Assembly: GCA_037146775.1 (NCBI GenBank)
Contig: JBAWWL010000002.1
Coordinates: 21,935-85,934, forward strand
Direction: 5' to 3'
Origin: Candidatus Omnitrophota bacterium
Lineage (GTDB): Bacteria; Omnitrophota; Gorgyraeia; Duberdicusellales; 4484-171
DNA: 64,000 nucleotides
In this document: positions 4,802 through 46,200 of the stretch, piece by piece
How the letters are laid out: every line of letters starts with the position of its first letter
How positions within the stretch are numbered: position 1 is the first letter of the stretch
The notes under the pieces: model-generated
Seen by the model: the letters and a program-made list of their open reading frames with translations, nothing else
Databases searched by the model: none
What the model was told of the DNA's origin: nothing
Position numbers and translations under genes: made by a program

Positions 4802-5624
4802 CCTTCATATCCATTCTACCTTTTCCGACAGCGATACTGATATCGAGCAAATTTTTCAGACAGCCCAATCAAAGAATCTATCCGCTATCGCCATTGCCGA
4901 CCATGATACTATCGATGGTTTGGCTTTGGCGGACGTCGCAAGCCAAAAATATAATATCGAACTTGTCAATGCGATCGAGATAAGCGCGCAAAAAGACGAT
5001 ACCGAAGTCCATGTGTTGGGATATTTCATTGATGCGGGAAGCCCGCAGCTGAAAGTTACTCTTGAGAGTATCCGTCAACTTAGAAAAAAACGTCTCATGG
5101 CAATGGTAGCGAAACTTCACGATCTCGGTTTCGCGGTTGGCGAAGAAGAGTTGTCTGCAAAAATAAAAGATGCCATTCCGACACGGCTGCATTTAGGTTT
5201 GTATTTAGTGGAGAAAAAGATTGTCAAATCTTTGCATGACGCTTTTGAAAAATACCTTTCTCCCGGTAAACCGGCTTATATTGCGCGCTTTAAGTATTCA
5301 ATTCCCGAAGCAATACAGTTAATCAAGTGTTACGGAGGCTTGGCGTTTTTGGCCCACCCGCACTTATTGCCAGCACAATCATGGATAGAGGAATTCGTTT
5401 CTTACGGGCTAGACGGTTTAGAGGTCGTATATCCGCGTTTTTCCGAAGCCAAGATCTCTCTTTATAAGAATATGGCCGAGCACTGGGGACTGTTGAAAAG
5501 CGGTGGTTCCGACGCTCACGGAAGCTATAAGAATTATACTGCGATAGGCTCGGTTACGGCTCCTTACGAGTGGGTGGAAGAAATGAAAAAGCGTCTCGCG
5601 CAACGCCCAAGAGGTACCGTATAG
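4773..5624 (+). CDS. PHP-domain phosphoesterase (TrpH/YciV family)
   Basis: CDLHIHSTFSDSDT...IAIADHDT PHP metal-binding motifs; start chosen at the internal ATG (MPSSPKKKCDLHIHS), overlapping the nusB end. Confidence 0.75.
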   Translation: MPSSPKKKCDLHIHSTFSDSDTDIEQIFQTAQSKNLSAIAIADHDTIDGLALADVASQKYNIELVNAIEISAQKDDTEVHVLGYFIDAGSPQLKVTLESIRQLRKKRLMAMVAKLHDLGFAVGEEELSAKIKDAIPTRLHLGLYLVEKKIVKSLHDAFEKYLSPGKPAYIARFKYSIPEAIQLIKCYGGLAFLAHPHLLPAQSWIEEFVSYGLDGLEVVYPRFSEAKISLYKNMAEHWGLLKSGGSDAHGSYKNYTAIGSVTAPYEWVEEMKKRLAQRPRGTV

Positions 5625-6745: not shown

Positions 6746-7319
6746 TATATGCTCACTCATGCGTATGCGGCGTTCTGTCCGTCTTTTTGGGCAGAAAAAA
6801 ATTCCTTTCGGGATTATCAAAAAAGTCGTTAACGCTGCTCGCCTTGCGCCTTCGGCGGCGAACTTGCAATTCATTGAGTATCTTGTTATCTGCGAGAAAG
6901 AGCAAAGGGAGAAAATATTTCCTTGTCTGCGTTGGGCGGGGTATATCGCTCCAAAAAGGAATCCGTCTCAGGATAAGACGCCGACTGTATACATTATTAT
7001 TCTTATCGCTAAAGATAAAAGCAAAGAACCAAACCTAAGAGATATTGGCGCCGCAGCACAGAGCATGTTGTTGACTTTAACCTATCTTGGTGCGGCTGGC
7101 TGCTGGCTTCAGAATATCGATAAAGAATCTTTGCGGCGCAGTGTACGTATCCCGGACAGATATGATATAGATTCAATAATCGCCGCAGGCTATCCTGCGG
7201 AAACTCCGCATCTTGAGACCGATGCGCGCAATATCAGATACTGGCTTGATGCGAAAAACAGGCTTCATGTTCCCAAAAGGCCGCTGGGAGATATTTTCCA
7301 TTATAATTATATAAAATAA
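6732..7319 (+). CDS. Nitroreductase family protein
   Basis: MRRSVRLF...PSAANLQ nitroreductase N-terminal signature; overlaps ribD 3' end. Confidence 0.75.
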   Translation: MKEIDICSLMRMRRSVRLFGQKKIPFGIIKKVVNAARLAPSAANLQFIEYLVICEKEQREKIFPCLRWAGYIAPKRNPSQDKTPTVYIIILIAKDKSKEPNLRDIGAAAQSMLLTLTYLGAAGCWLQNIDKESLRRSVRIPDRYDIDSIIAAGYPAETPHLETDARNIRYWLDAKNRLHVPKRPLGDIFHYNYIK

Positions 7320-7472
7320 TTTTATGCACAGATTAGTATAGATACGCACTACAGAGGGGCCCAGAAAGGTTTTTCCCTTAGGGTTATTGCCTCGTGGGGC
7401 CTGGTTATTTAAAATATTGTTCCATGCTTAGGTATTCGGATTTCTGGTTTATTAAGTTGTTATCAGTGATAT

Positions 7473-42355: not shown

Positions 42356-43309
42356 CTAAGGCATGAAAGATTTTAGTATCATCAAGAAGGATAAGTTAAA
42401 GGTGTTGTGTATAATGTGTAGTGTGATGGGGGCGGAAATATGCTGTGTTTTTTCGTATACATAACAGAGTACGATACTGAGAAAAAGTAACGGAAGTATG
42501 TCTTGCGGTGTTCTGTGCAACATGGAAAAAATAACCGATGAAAGGATAGCGGAAAGCCAAAAACCATATCGTTTTCTGGCGCATTTATAGATAATAGCTC
42601 GAAAAAATAATTCTTCAGCCACCGGCCCAAACAGAATTACCTGTAAAACAATAAGAGCAATAATTTTAGTATTTTTAAAAGCAAGGAAAAGTCCGATAAC
42701 AGGATTTTGGACTATTTTCATGCCGCTTTTCTCGGTAAGAAAGGTATTGAATAGAAGTAGCCCCGTGATAAGCGGCAATATGGTTATATAGACTTTAACC
42801 AGATAGTCGAAATCATTTTTGGCTATGGAGAAGTCTAAGAATTTCCCGGGGAGAAAGCAGCGTATTATGCCTATGATGCCTAATTCTAGGGCCAGGTTAA
42901 GCGTGAGAGCCAATTCAAGCCTGTTTATATTCAGTTGGAAGATAGCCGCACTTATCTCTATTACGTAAGTGCAAAAAACAAATAAAGTGACCAAGAAAAT
43001 AAGCTTTCCGGTTGTTTCTTGATCAAGCGGAAACGATTTCTGTATTGTTTCGAATTGTAGGGATGCTTTTTTCCGAAACAGCTTGATGGAGTATAATATT
43101 AAATGAACAGTTCCCGTCAGTAGCAGAAATATAAACAGAGTAACGAAAAAAACGAATGTTTGAGTATGCGGGTTATTAGTCAGTCTTTGTTTATCAAAGG
43201 TAGGCTCGTAAGCGTTTTTCGTGGAAAATTTCGAAGGAATAGAGTTTTGTAACAGCACTATAGCGATGATGCAGACGAGAGTTAATAGAATATATTTATT
43301 TTTTTTCAC
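42356..43309 (-). CDS. CPBP-family intramembrane metalloprotease (CAAX protease/Abi family)
   Basis: EELFFRAIIY...FSMLH motifs in a multi-TM protein. Confidence 0.7.
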   Translation of the reverse strand: MKKNKYILLTLVCIIAIVLLQNSIPSKFSTKNAYEPTFDKQRLTNNPHTQTFVFFVTLFIFLLLTGTVHLILYSIKLFRKKASLQFETIQKSFPLDQETTGKLIFLVTLFVFCTYVIEISAAIFQLNINRLELALTLNLALELGIIGIIRCFLPGKFLDFSIAKNDFDYLVKVYITILPLITGLLLFNTFLTEKSGMKIVQNPVIGLFLAFKNTKIIALIVLQVILFGPVAEELFFRAIIYKCARKRYGFWLSAILSSVIFSMLHRTPQDILPLLFLSIVLCYVYEKTQHISAPITLHIIHNTFNLSFLMILKSFMP

Positions 43310-43441
43310 TATTTTTTATTGTTTCTGTTCAGCAACTAATGGAATATTCCATTAGTTATGTTTCTGTAGTGATATCCTGCTCGTAGTCTTCCTGTCTCGT
43401 AATTTTTAGGGCGCCGTATGTTTTTGATAAAGTAAAGAAAA

Positions 43442-43529
43442 CGGAGGAGAGAGGATTTGAACCTCTGAGGGACACAAGGCCCCCACTGGTTTTCGAGACC
43501 AGCGCATTCAACCACTCTGCCACTCCTCC
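43442..43529 (-). tRNA. tRNA-Ser (anticodon CGA)
   Basis: Manual fold: acceptor GGAGGAG/CTCCTCC, 3-bp D stem, anticodon loop CUCGAAA, long variable arm, T-loop TTCAAAT; 88 nt. Confidence 0.85.
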
Positions 43530-43632
43530 AGGTGAAATTTTACGCAAAACGTAAAAGCCCAACGGTTTTTCCGCCAAAATTTGTTCTACAAATTTTGGCG
43601 AGACCTCGCCTAAATAATTATTAATACGGCGG

Positions 43633-43670
43633 GCGAGACCAGCGCATTCAACCACTCTGCCACTCCTCCA
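43633..43670. repeat. 38-bp exact direct copy of the 5' half of tRNA-Ser (acceptor through anticodon stem)
   Basis: CGAGACCAGCGCATTCAACCACTCTGCCACTCCTCCA identical to 43493-43530. Confidence 0.85.
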
Positions 43671-44140
43671 AGAGCCAGCGTACTTACGCATGGCCGAACA
43701 ATATCGTTGAGTTAATGTAGCTAAGGAAGTTTTACCACCTACCAACTGTTCAGGTCCCTGGCTCTTCATAGGGACTCTGTCTCTTTTGATGAAAAGCTGC
43801 AAGAATACCTAAGATGTAATTCACGCTTTGCTGTCACCCTGGAGTTATCTCAGGGAGGACAGATTATCTTACCAAGAATTCTCAAACAAGCAAAAATACG
43901 CAAGGGTGGGGGTTTCCGCCCTGGGCGCCTGCCCGCCGTGTATAACTTCACAATAACGGTAATAGGTTAAGGCTACGGTTACGATGCCCGTTTCGTTCTT
44001 CGGTTACGTCATTCGTCTTTATTTTTATATATACTTAAGCCGTTACCGCTAGACGTCACCGATACGGGCACCCTTACCCTTGCCGTTATCGAAATACTGA
44101 AGAACTACACTGCCCGGCGAGGCAGGGATTTGCCTTAATT

Positions 44141-44387
44141 AAAAGTGCGCGGGGGGGGACTTGAAACAAATCTCGCCGGAGGCGAGCTTCTTAGTATTTG
44201 TTCCAAGACCACTCTCGCATAAAATAAACTATAGTTGGCGCGCAAAACTTTTAGAACAAGCAAAAGTGCGCGGGGGGGGACTTGAAACAAATCTCGCCGG
44301 AGGCGAGCTTCTTAGTATTTGTTCCAAGACCACTCTCGCATAAAATAAACTATAGTTGGCGCGCAAAACTTTTAGAACAAGCAAAAG
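44141..44387. repeat. Two 121-bp tandem units plus a partial third copy, each beginning with the last 25 nt of tRNA-Leu (T-loop through discriminator + CTTTT)
   Basis: AAAAGTGCGCGGGGGGGGACTTGAA at 44141, 44262 and 44383 (the last is the tRNA itself); the intervening 96 bp are identical and contain the hairpin CTCGCCGGAGGCGAG. Confidence 0.9.
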
Positions 44388-44469
44388 TGCGCGGGGGGGG
44401 ACTTGAACCCCCATGGAATTACCCATACGCTTCTGAGACGTATGCGTCTGCCAATTTCGCCACCCGCGC
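44388..44469 (-). tRNA. tRNA-Leu (anticodon CAG)
   Basis: Manual fold: acceptor GCGCGGG/CCCGCGC, 3-bp D stem, anticodon loop CUCAGAA, 13-nt variable arm, T-arm GGGGG-TTCAAGT-CCCCC; 82 nt. Confidence 0.8.
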
Positions 44470-44759
44470 ATTTTTCAAAGGATATGGCACAGTCCTCAAG
44501 AGTTGCCCCCATGCGCTTTTGAGGCGCATGCGTATGTCAACCCCGTCAACTTCCGCACAAAGTTATTACGTGTTTATTAATCCGCATTAACTAAGTATTG
44601 CCACGAAGTATTCCAATTATATCAAATAATTTGCTTGTCAGGAAAGATTTTTCTGCGCAAGTACCCTAAAGGTCAATAAACTATAGAAATTTAATAGGGC
44701 TGGCGGAGCAGCTATTTTATATCTTTCTCAACGAGATATCCTATGTTATAATTTTTTAC

Positions 44760-45707
44760 ATGATGGTTGTTGCGCTTGCGATTATTAAATCGACGAGTAT
44801 TGCTTTACTCGGATATTATTTGTATAAGAAAGATTATATTAATACAAAAGTCCTTGATTTCTTAATCTTTTTTGTAATAAATTTTGCCGTACCTTGCCTG
44901 GCATTCGCCCATCTTGTAGAAAACCTTAAAGTCAATACCCAGCCTTCCTTGGGGGTGTTTCTTTTGCTCAGCATTATTATATTTGTTATCAGTTTTCTTG
45001 TTGGGTTGCTTTTTTCATTTAGGAAGAGCCACGAATTTAAAAGAGAATTTATCAGTCTGGTAAGTTTTCAAAATAGCGGTTATCTGCCGATGAATATCGC
45101 ATTATTTCTTTTTCCCCCGGTATTGCGGGAAACATTTCTGGTGTATATTTTCCTCTATATTTTGGGATTCGATATCATTATGTGGTCGATAGGCAGTTTT
45201 TTTATTTTCAAGAAGAAAGAGGATGAATTTAAGATAAAATCAATTCTTACCCCGCCGATTATAAGCATAGCGCTGGCTCTTGTTTTAGTATATACCGGCG
45301 GCGCACGATTCCTGCCTGACATATTTATCGGGCCGGTTAAAATGGTAGGCGAAACGAGTTTTGTGCTTTCTATGATTATCGTAGGCTGCTGGCTTGCCCG
45401 CGTCGAGCTCAACGGATTATATAAAAAACTACTGATTATTTTGGAAGCAAGTTTTGCCAAGCTCGTTATATTGCCGTCTCTATTTTTGTTTATAGTTGTG
45501 AAGCTGGATGTAACCCCTCTTTTGGGATTGTTTATTATTTTACAGGCGGCAATGCCTTCGGCAGTAAGCTTGCCTATAGTAGTGAATTTACGTAATGCTG
45601 ACAGTGAATTCGTTTCACAGGGAGTGCTGGTTACGCATCTTATCAGCATTATAACCGTTCCTTTGTGGTTGGGATTATATGTAAGGCTGACGCATTTTTC
45701 TTTTTGA
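44760..45707 (+). CDS. AEC-family (auxin efflux carrier-like) membrane transporter
   Basis: ~10 TM helices, 315 aa, typical AEC/malate permease N-terminus. Confidence 0.65.
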   Translation: MMVVALAIIKSTSIALLGYYLYKKDYINTKVLDFLIFFVINFAVPCLAFAHLVENLKVNTQPSLGVFLLLSIIIFVISFLVGLLFSFRKSHEFKREFISLVSFQNSGYLPMNIALFLFPPVLRETFLVYIFLYILGFDIIMWSIGSFFIFKKKEDEFKIKSILTPPIISIALALVLVYTGGARFLPDIFIGPVKMVGETSFVLSMIIVGCWLARVELNGLYKKLLIILEASFAKLVILPSLFLFIVVKLDVTPLLGLFIILQAAMPSAVSLPIVVNLRNADSEFVSQGVLVTHLISIITVPLWLGLYVRLTHFSF

Positions 45708-45738: not shown

Positions 45739-46200
45739 ATGAAAATAATCGCCACTAACAGAAAAGCCATTCGTGATTACACTTTGCTGGAAACCTATGA
45801 AGCGGGGATAGAGCTGAAGGGAACCGAAGTCAAATCTCTTCGTGTCCGAGGTTGTTCTGTCGAGGAAGCTTTTGGCAGGGTAGAGGGTAGCGAAATCTTT
45901 CTGTATAACATGCATATCCCTGAATATGAGAAAAGCTCTTATTTCAGGGCGGAGCCGAAACGAACCAGAAAATTGCTGTTACATAAGAAAGAAATCAAGC
46001 GGTTGATCGGGCTCATCAGCCAAAAAGGTTTTACCATCATTCCCTTAAAAATGTATTTCAACGATAAGGGATTTGCCAAGGTAGAGATCGCTCTGGCTAA
46101 GGGTAGAGTTTTGTATGATAAGCGCCGCAAAATCAAAGAAGCGTTAACGGAAAGAGAGACGCGCAGAATTTTGAAGGGATTTAATAACCGCGGCAGGTAA
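45739..46200 (+). CDS. smpB: SsrA-binding protein SmpB
   Basis: NRKAIRDYTLLETYEAGIELKGTEVKSLR canonical SmpB N-terminus and basic C-terminal tail. Confidence 0.9.
   Translation: MKIIATNRKAIRDYTLLETYEAGIELKGTEVKSLRVRGCSVEEAFGRVEGSEIFLYNMHIPEYEKSSYFRAEPKRTRKLLLHKKEIKRLIGLISQKGFTIIPLKMYFNDKGFAKVEIALAKGRVLYDKRRKIKEALTERETRRILKGFNNRGR

Follow-up and report, generated by a model that had tools for sequence, protein, structure and literature searches.

The gene-free tract between tRNA-Leu(CAG) and tRNA-Ser(CGA) in a Candidatus Omnitrophota genome: tRNA-gene fragments, tandem units and a double-hairpin element at a variable locus

In the genome of a Candidatus Omnitrophota bacterium (assembly GCA_037146775.1), the functional genes for tRNA-Leu(CAG) and tRNA-Ser(CGA) lie in the same orientation on the minus strand and enclose a tract without genes, which raises the question whether this tract is a functional unit, such as the attachment or control region of a mobile element, or an accumulation of separate pieces. 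We analyzed a window of 64,000 nucleotides around it (contig JBAWWL010000002.1, positions 21,935 to 85,934 of the forward strand), to which all coordinates refer unless another locus is named. A preliminary description of the same DNA had reported a gene-free stretch of 600 bp at 43530-44140; the tract is gene-free, but these 600 bp are only the lower part of its full length of 856 bp (43531-44386). We conclude that it is probably not one functional unit but a mosaic in which debris of tRNA genes and other remnants have accumulated at a recombination or integration hotspot. This reading starts from what was observed directly, namely the anatomy of the tract, a conserved 121-bp unit, a conserved truncated ("orphan") tRNA-Ser with an inserted element, variable cargo in relatives, and viral contigs carrying integrases.

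Anatomy of the tract and the variable slot beside tRNA-Leu

The features of the tract and its immediate flanks are listed here in the order in which they are read on the minus strand, followed by one overlapping open reading frame (ORF).

44492-44556, minus strand: truncated tRNA-Leu-like pseudogene of the GCGGAAG acceptor type with a CAA-like anticodon loop, without T-arm and 3' end
44387-44469, minus strand: functional tRNA-Leu(CAG), called by ARAGORN and by Rfam tRNA
44141-44382, minus strand: two exact tandem units of 121 bp (121 bp x2.2, 100% identity)
44110-44125, minus strand: terminator-like hairpin CTGCCTCGCCGGGCAG with a T-rich tail
43949-44093, no strand assigned: imperfect palindrome of ~145 nt with an AT-rich centre, holding five short motif sites and both ACGTCA copies
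43873-43935, minus strand: weak, diverged copy of the tRNA-Leu 3' end with its downstream flank (27/37 identity to 44243-44279; BLAST E=0.08 in the window)
43671-43896, no strand assigned: segment of 226 bp without homologue, with short hairpins, e.g., 43753-43776, terminator-like
43634-43669, minus strand: orphan tRNA-Ser(CGA), nt 1-36, ending in the anticodon, 100% identical to 43494-43529
43571-43632, minus strand: double-hairpin element of 62 nt, CCGCC-(A)-GGCGAG GT CTCGCC-(B)-GGCGG
43563-43570, minus strand: AAAAACCG, where the anticodon loop and stem of the orphan resume after the interruption
43538-43556, minus strand: AT-rich hairpin C (TTTTACG-TTTTG-CGTAAAA), just upstream of tRNA-Ser
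43441-43530, minus strand: functional tRNA-Ser(CGA), called by ARAGORN and by Rfam tRNA with 61 bits
43356-43802, minus strand: ORF of 148 amino acids running through tRNA-Ser and the orphan on the same strand, without a Pfam match

The locus would thus be the expanded spacer of a co-oriented tRNA-Leu(CAG) to tRNA-Ser(CGA) pair, composed on the minus strand of tRNA-Leu pseudogene, tRNA-Leu, two 121-bp units, ~470 bp of other sequence, the interrupted orphan, hairpin C, and tRNA-Ser. Each 121-bp unit consists of a tRNA-Leu trailer of ~97 nt, in which a terminator-like hairpin (CTCGCC-TCC-GGCGAG) is followed by a T-run (ATTTGTTTC), and of a copy of the last 21 nt of tRNA-Leu with 4 flanking nt. 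The 25-nt repeats at 44141-44165 and 44262-44286 are identical to the tRNA-Leu 3' end at 44383-44407, which occurs three times in the window. With respect to the tRNA-end repeats that had been proposed to flank the tract, the copies of the tRNA-Leu end are exact, but the far-side copy at 43873-43935 is weak. In the relative L030 there is a single unit of the 121-bp type with 93% identity, which ends in a 14-nt copy of the T-arm of its own tRNA-Leu (the 14-nt repeat is present twice, 122 bp apart). L032, a relative with 61% transporter identity, carries behind its tRNA-Leu an exact array of its own (133 bp x2.3, 7152-7461 of that locus), the unit of which contains the last ~20 nt of its own tRNA-Leu and 23 nt of flank, giving a 44-nt repeat that occurs three times at intervals of 133 bp. 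Judged from sequence comparison, the tRNA-Leu-end repeat architecture recurs with differing copy number and in each case follows the tRNA sequence of the genome concerned. Slippage or unequal recombination between the tRNA-end repeats could add and remove units, and the repeats themselves may have been created by integrases. The possibility that the 121/133-bp units are decayed copies of the whole tRNA-Leu was rejected, as 75, 73 and 206 of 300 shuffles scored as high or higher outside the shared last 24 nt.

Contig CAZTHQ010000035.1 (GCA_964613555.1) matches the window at 100%, except that it contains one 121-bp unit and the window two, and a Logan contig of the same population (L003) breaks at 44378. 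The difference in copy number reflects either real variation or assembly collapse at the repeat. The tRNA-Leu-like pseudogene, 22 nt upstream of the functional tRNA-Leu, can be aligned to the tRNA-Leu of L004 and L032 up to the T-arm; its acceptor type is functional in L004, L032, and L009. We also observed a similar truncated tRNA-Leu-like fragment with a UAA-like anticodon loop upstream of tRNA-Leu in L027 (~7390-7458, minus strand). Neither ARAGORN nor Rfam called these two fragments.

One relative (59% identity) was obtained by a contig scan and most others by exact-protein look-ups, the other compared relatives having 61-65% transporter identity. In the distant relative L001 (59% at the amino acid level), tRNA-Leu(CAG) and tRNA-Ser(CGA) are separated by a 66-bp spacer with one hairpin. 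In L005 the slot between the two tRNA genes is occupied by a 2.8-kb gene for an MmeI-like type IIG restriction-modification protein, in L027 and L030 by a gene for a spermine-synthase-like protein of ~520 amino acids, and in L032 by 423 bp without genes. In L007, L009, and L010, which represent one population, a large serine recombinase of 528 amino acids is encoded directly after tRNA-Leu. Between this gene and tRNA-Leu, the opposite strand of L009 (2077-2241) and L007 (1395-1559) encodes residues 445-499 of the recombinase with 100% identity; by its sequence, this stretch is an inverted duplication of the 3' end of the recombinase gene.

Two IMG/VR viral contigs, L034 and L035, contain a tyrosine integrase gene (PF00589, E 1e-20 to 1e-22; 1587-2654 in L034 and 273-1265 in L035) abutting a 3' fragment of tRNA-Leu(CAG) of ~50 nt, the last 21 nt of which are identical to tRNA-Leu of the window; an intact tRNA is not present on them. 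This layout is as expected of a phage attachment site (attP), and we regard integrase and fragment as a candidate attP. Since these viral contigs bear integrases next to a matching tRNA-Leu 3' fragment, elements using this tRNA-Leu exist. In L035, the integrase ORF reads through the tRNA-Leu fragment.

When the tract was compared with the scar that integration leaves between attL and attR, repeats of the tRNA 3' end and variable content were found, and an integrase and an atypical base composition were not. The suggestion that the tract is the decayed attachment region of a mobile element therefore stands as far as the tRNA-linked hotspot, the tRNA-end copies, and the variable cargo are concerned, but not with respect to arm sites and iterons (see below). 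Several observations weigh against our reading as a mosaic at an integration hotspot. Queried by tblastn with one serine recombinase and two tyrosine integrases, the window gave no match, and Pfam revealed no mobile-element gene among the genes flanking the tract. The base composition of the tract is not atypical (GC 0.42 at 43001-45000 versus 0.36-0.51 across the window). The restriction-modification gene of L005 has no detectable flanking tRNA-Leu repeat, the fourth tRNA-Leu-end copy, which bounds a 243-bp segment (43897-44140), is weak (27/37 identity, E=0.08), and the difference in the number of 121-bp units could be an assembly artefact. The copy of the tRNA-Ser 5' half upstream of the intact gene is not a product of classical integration, which duplicates the 3' part of a tRNA. 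Finally, conservation of the 121-bp unit and of the orphan with the double hairpin exceeds that of the protein genes beside them (55-72% nt identity).

In the form first described, the finding is ordinary, as tRNA genes are classical integration targets, at which partial tRNA copies, tandemly repeated tRNA ends, and orphan hairpins are the litter to be expected. Its value lies mainly in the annotation of a poorly known phylum, for which it points out a tRNA-Leu/tRNA-Ser hotspot with islands that are gained and lost, a spurious gene call, and a variation of tandem units between assemblies.

In agreement with the preliminary description, no credible ORF was found, the longest one inside the tract encoding 42 amino acids. 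The region of the 148-amino-acid ORF over tRNA-Ser is annotated as a gene of 137 amino acids in the NCBI assembly GCA_964613555.1; this is almost certainly a spurious gene call. The Rfam scan that had been proposed as a check was run and showed that no known RNA explains the tract: apart from the two tRNAs, the hits with E<=1 comprised just a weak sX4 match over tRNA-Ser, and only tRNA passed the gathering threshold. The sequence TAAAAT located 7 nt before the mature 5' end of tRNA-Ser may be a -10 box with a promoter role. At the position of hairpin C, L005 carries a hairpin with another sequence. The genes flanking the tract have housekeeping functions according to Pfam (Dus, phosphoribosyltransferase, M48 peptidase, Rce1-like protease, AEC-family transporter, SmpB, and inositol monophosphatase). 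Proteins homologous to this transporter carry the name Candidatus Omnitrophota. Although smpB is present at 45739-46200, ARAGORN and Rfam found no transfer-messenger RNA (tmRNA) gene in the 64-kb window, and a tmRNA or another known RNA near smpB was rejected on these grounds. Between tRNA-Ser and the Rce1-like gene there is a perfect 12+12-bp palindrome (AACTAATGGAAT/ATTCCATTAGTT, 43334-43357), which is terminator-like on the plus strand.

The CGGTTAC-type words and the palindrome at 43949-44093

The preliminary description had drawn attention to five copies of a CGGTTAC-type motif, which were compared to arm-type sites of integrases or to replication iterons. All five sites exist (43957, 43976, 44001, 44040, and 44083), but they represent two different words and not one motif. 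CGGTTAC and GTAACGG had been taken for the two orientations of one motif, which is wrong because the reverse complement of CGGTTAC is GTAACCG. The first word, CGGTTACG, is present in two direct copies 25 bp apart, and the second, GCCGTTAYCG, in two direct copies 43 bp apart and in one true inverse copy, TAACGGTAA. The two copies of ACGTCA that had been noted were confirmed at 44006-44011 and 44053-44058.

With a pattern that was picked after the data had been seen, C[CG]GT[AT]A[CT], five same-strand sites fall within 146 bp, which is the maximum of the window; elsewhere no more than three were found. This cluster was reached in none of 300 first-order Markov simulations and in this sense exceeds simulated chance, but the pattern is post hoc and the heptamer family is ~2-fold over-represented in the whole window (106 sites observed versus 54 expected from shuffles).

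The mapping of arm pairs and direct pairs revealed that the words and the ACGTCA pair largely coincide with the arms of the imperfect palindrome. On both strands a long hairpin is predicted, with -84 kcal/mol for 256 nt (z = -2.4) and with CCCTGCCTCGCCG / CGGCGGGCAGG as its outer, GC-rich closing stem; the 161-nt core of the palindrome folds moderately better than shuffles (z = -1.6 and -2.4). An AT-rich stretch of ~25 bp is located within the cluster at 44015-44038. What had been called CGGTTAC-type motifs would accordingly be palindrome arms plus two short direct repeats. Going further, the whole cluster might be a by-product of one imperfect palindrome of ~145-200 nt, that is, of a MITE-like (miniature inverted-repeat transposable element) insertion, a hairpin-forming transcript, or an unrecognised small RNA at 43897-44140, in which the short words have no sequence-specific role. 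The predicted hairpin on both strands (z = -1.6 to -2.4), the GC-rich outer stem, and the mapped arm pairs speak for this proposal, which we nevertheless consider somewhat unlikely: the z-scores are modest, the 64-kb window contains no second copy and thus no sign of a multicopy MITE, homologues that could reveal covariation were not found, and Rfam gave no match.

Under the idea that the words are integrase arm-type sites, the 243 bp at 43897-44140 would be an element reduced to its attP arms, similar to a cis-mobilizable element (CIME). The segment begins right after an exact copy of the tRNA-Leu end and terminates in the weak diverged copy, an AT-rich centre is flanked on either side by the repeated words, their clustering is unusual in statistical terms, and integrases targeting this tRNA-Leu exist. 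The attP of phage lambda comprises ~240 bp, a size that the segment fits. We still judge this origin improbable. There are only two direct copies of each word (plus one inverse copy), no core was recognised, the window contains no integrase gene, and the words are conserved nowhere. The flanks of the candidate attP in L034 and L035 have no similarity to the segment beyond the tRNA part, the segment is absent from the sampled relatives and from phage and plasmid records, and the words are equally well explained as palindrome arms. Scans of viral contigs with the word pairs CGGTTACG...CGGTTACG and GCCGTTACCG...GCCGTTAYCG each returned at least ~100 matching stretches, and these patterns were judged too unspecific.

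The comparison with replication iterons, which would make the cluster the origin of a plasmid- or phage-like replicon, is close to refuted. Iterons are typically 17-22 bp long and are present in three or more copies with helical spacing. Of the features of such an origin the cluster has only the AT-rich stretch at 44015-44038, beside which short direct repeats are located; the words measure 8-10 bp, occur in two copies each, and are spaced by 25 and 43 bp. No rep gene is found among the flanking genes, the neighbours being chromosomal housekeeping genes (Dus, M48 peptidase, SmpB, inositol monophosphatase), and similarity to plasmids or phages was not detected.

The 470 bp that include the cluster (43671-44140) showed no similarity to any retrieved relative or to other parts of the window, and no match in Rfam. 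An origin from a phage or plasmid was rejected, as blastn with a word size of 11 nt found no match in phage or plasmid records. Likewise, tblastn gave nothing below E=0.5 with the proteins that constitute the cargo of relatives (restriction-modification, spermine-synthase-like, recombinase, and small island proteins), so that a pseudogene of this cargo was also discarded. As no homologues of the 470 bp were found, conservation gives no information on them. They are most likely a lineage-specific leftover of inserted DNA, the genes of which would have been deleted.

The orphan tRNA-Ser and the double-hairpin element

An exact repeat of the 5' half of tRNA-Ser had been reported with a length of 38 bp. 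The repeat is real but comprises 37 bp (43494-43530 = 43634-43670), as T is found at 43493 and G at 43633. It covers nt 1-36 of tRNA-Ser, stopping after the second anticodon base, together with a single base upstream, and is located 103 bp upstream of the tRNA-Ser gene. Neither ARAGORN nor Rfam called the orphan; both the orphan (43634-43669) and the tRNA-Leu-like stretch (44492-44556) have the hallmarks of tRNA pseudogenes. The orphan is interrupted in its anticodon by the 62-nt element, beyond which its sequence resumes as AAAACCG(G/T). The junction GGTCTCG/CCCGCC is common to the window, L005, and L030, in each case ~100 bp upstream of tRNA-Ser, and is degraded in L032. In the intact tRNA-Ser gene of L027, which includes GGTCTCGAAAACCGG and GCCGGTCTCGAAAACCGG, GCCGGTCTCG is joined directly to AAAACCGG, whereas L005 reads GGTCTCG, insert, AAAACCGG.

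Nucleotides 2-37 of the uninterrupted L027 tRNA-Ser are identical to the L030 orphan at 36 of 36 positions, and because of this match the orphan is, as far as sequence can tell, an old tRNA-Ser(CGA) copy that is interrupted in the anticodon and lacks the 3' part. The duplicated 5' half is not a recent att duplication but an old truncated copy that the window shares with three related genomes. In the window, orphan and functional gene have the same sequence; in L030 the identity between the two is only 86%. The exact identity over 37 bp is therefore best explained by gene conversion, which would have made the orphan identical to the functional tRNA-Ser in this lineage.

Functional tRNA-Ser is 96.6% identical between the window and L030 and 65-68% between the window and L005 or L032. 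Two types of functional tRNA-Ser(CGA) can thus be distinguished, one in the window and L030 (97%) and one in L005 and L032 (97%), with 65-68% identity between the types. In L027 the last 30-31 nt of tRNA-Ser are 100% identical to the L005/L032 type, and the 5' half matches the orphan type. The types are incongruent with the transporter similarity, which suggests that the tRNA-Ser gene may have been replaced or recombined. A covariation of the acceptor strand of the orphan with the functional tRNA was suggested by the window and L005 and was refuted by L030, in which the orphan has GGAGAGG and the functional gene GGAGGAG.

In the element of the window, hairpin B (43572-43600) is a perfect stem of 13 bp, the core is located at 43597-43610, and hairpin A is degenerate. 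The exact 21-mer GGCGAGGTCTCGCCAAAATTT was found in 13 metagenome loci (L013-L025). In 9 of these 13 loci the element is situated directly 3' of tRNA-Ser(GCU or GGA) in opposite orientation, and the CGCCA end of the tRNA forms the base of hairpin B; in the other 4 it lies between protein genes. The L020 locus belongs to Omnitrophota. In L015 and L024 the element is placed between tRNA-Ser(GGA) and the signal recognition particle (SRP) RNA, and the DnaX protein clusters at 90% identity with a protein from Thermodesulfobacteriota. A second copy in L030 immediately follows the functional tRNA-Ser gene (5510-5583). There is one element in the 64-kb window and there are one or two per locus in ~280 kb of retrieved DNA. 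In L017 (192-510) an ARAGORN "tmRNA" spans two tRNA-Ser genes and looks like a false positive.

Hairpin counts were taken from folds of the individual sequences, as the MAFFT alignment of hairpin A had inconsistent gap placement. Each of the 11 sequence types forms hairpin B (9-16 bp), in which some changes are compensatory, and hairpin A is well formed in 7 of the 11 and degenerate in the orphan-linked copies. The core GGCGAG(G/A)TCTCGCC is invariant, which is partly built in because the loci were retrieved with the exact 21-mer. No Rfam family explains the element, and its 14-nt core did not turn up in the literature searched.

Conservation between the genomes was as follows.

Transporter gene, between genomes: 64-72% nt identity
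Rce1-like gene, between genomes: 55-67% nt identity
Functional tRNA-Ser, between genomes: 65-97%
Orphan, between genomes: 86-100%
Orphan plus element, between genomes: 72-85%
121-bp unit, window versus L030: 93%

A conservation above that of protein genes is not predicted for pure debris and therefore points to selection or lateral exchange; on present sequences, the segments linked to tRNA-Ser and tRNA-Leu would be either selected or laterally exchanged. In the case of selection, orphan, double hairpin, and hairpin C (43538-43669) could be a functional cis-element before tRNA-Ser instead of debris, for example, a read-through insulator or terminator, a platform for RNase processing, or a protein-binding DNA site on the dyad GGCGAG-GT-CTCGCC. 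We hold this to be a genuine, if tentative, possibility, which is compatible with the mosaic reading for the remainder of the tract. It is favoured by the identity of 86-100% of the orphan at neighbour genes with 55-72% nt identity and functional tRNA-Ser down to 65-68%, and by the invariance of the core and of the lower stem of hairpin B. Moreover, hairpin B is kept with different stems, the 13-bp stem linked to the L030 orphan being wholly different, and its top pairs show swaps between G-C and A-U and between C-G and U-A. At the D-stem pair 11-24, the orphans of the window and L005 have G-C and that of L030 has A-U, as does the intact L027 gene. In the 13 metagenome loci, among them the Thermodesulfobacteriota-like one with the element between tRNA-Ser(GGA) and SRP RNA, the same element directly follows a tRNA-Ser(GCU/GGA/CGA) gene on its 3' side or separates genes of the same direction, and the Rfam sX4 hairpin starting from the CGCC 3' end of tRNA-Ser aligns to hairpin B, albeit below threshold. 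On the other hand, hairpin A is degenerate in all 4 orphan-linked copies (4-9 bp versus 10-16 bp elsewhere), and L027 has neither orphan nor element. As the hairpins have no U-run, they are not canonical intrinsic terminators. Gene conversion, which is evident in the window, and lateral exchange could keep the similarity without function, the tRNA-Ser types being incongruent with the transporter similarity, and the invariance of the core is in part a consequence of the retrieval.

More specifically, orphan and double hairpin might constitute an undescribed, selected module linked to tRNA-Ser, acting as an RNA or DNA signal for termination, processing, or regulation, or else a miniature mobile element that targets tRNA-Ser sequences and in this case has inserted into an anticodon loop. 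This we regard as doubtful, and we have the same doubts about the associated proposal that the module is common to Omnitrophota and at least one Thermodesulfobacteriota-like lineage. The orphan with the double hairpin is nonetheless the only part of the tract with real novelty potential: should it turn out to be functional or mobile, it would represent a novel structured element linked to tRNA genes, and neither its conservation nor its occurrence next to tRNA-Ser in a second phylum is what one expects of junk.

Comparison with known systems

The double hairpin resembles repetitive extragenic palindromic (REP) sequences, bacterial interspersed mosaic elements (BIME), REPIN, and MITE in being a short intergenic pair of hairpins that occurs in either orientation and keeps its stems by compensatory change. 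Unlike these, it occurs once in the 64-kb window and is associated mostly with tRNA-Ser genes, and no partner in the form of a REP-associated tyrosine transposase (RAYT) or another transposase was seen.

The sX4 model (RF02223), a small RNA of Xanthomonas, combines a part resembling tRNA-Ser(CGA) with a 3' extension. Common to both is a hairpin formed by the CGCC 3' end of tRNA-Ser with a downstream GGCG, and hairpin B aligns to it in L015. However, the scores of 20-36 bits (20 for tRNA-Ser of the window), obtained mostly from the tRNA part, compare with a gathering score of 70, and the element of the window is located inside a truncated tRNA-Ser and in opposite orientation.

The distal repeats of Escherichia coli tyrT, which encode rtT RNA (RF00391), are units of 178 bp present ~3 times after tRNA-Tyr, each with the last 19 nt of the tRNA. 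The tract has neither sequence similarity nor an Rfam match to rtT, tRNA and phylum differ, and the units begin just beyond the stretch covered by the preliminary description. The arrangement is nevertheless the same, as exact units of 121 bp (window) or 133 bp (L032), each with the last ~20 nt of the tRNA, follow the tRNA gene and their copy number varies between assemblies.

From phages and islands that integrate into tRNA genes by means of tyrosine integrases, the locus is distinguished by the lack of an integrase or other element gene in the window, by the distance of only 97 nt between the exact repeats, the intervening sequence being 93% conserved in L030, and by the tRNA-Ser and tRNA-Leu fragments, which are 5' parts upstream of intact genes. 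What it shares with them is the repetition of the tRNA-Leu 3' end, from the T-loop to the 3' end, downstream of the intact gene, the presence of different cargo in the same slot of relatives, and the existence of viral integrases with a matching tRNA-Leu fragment.

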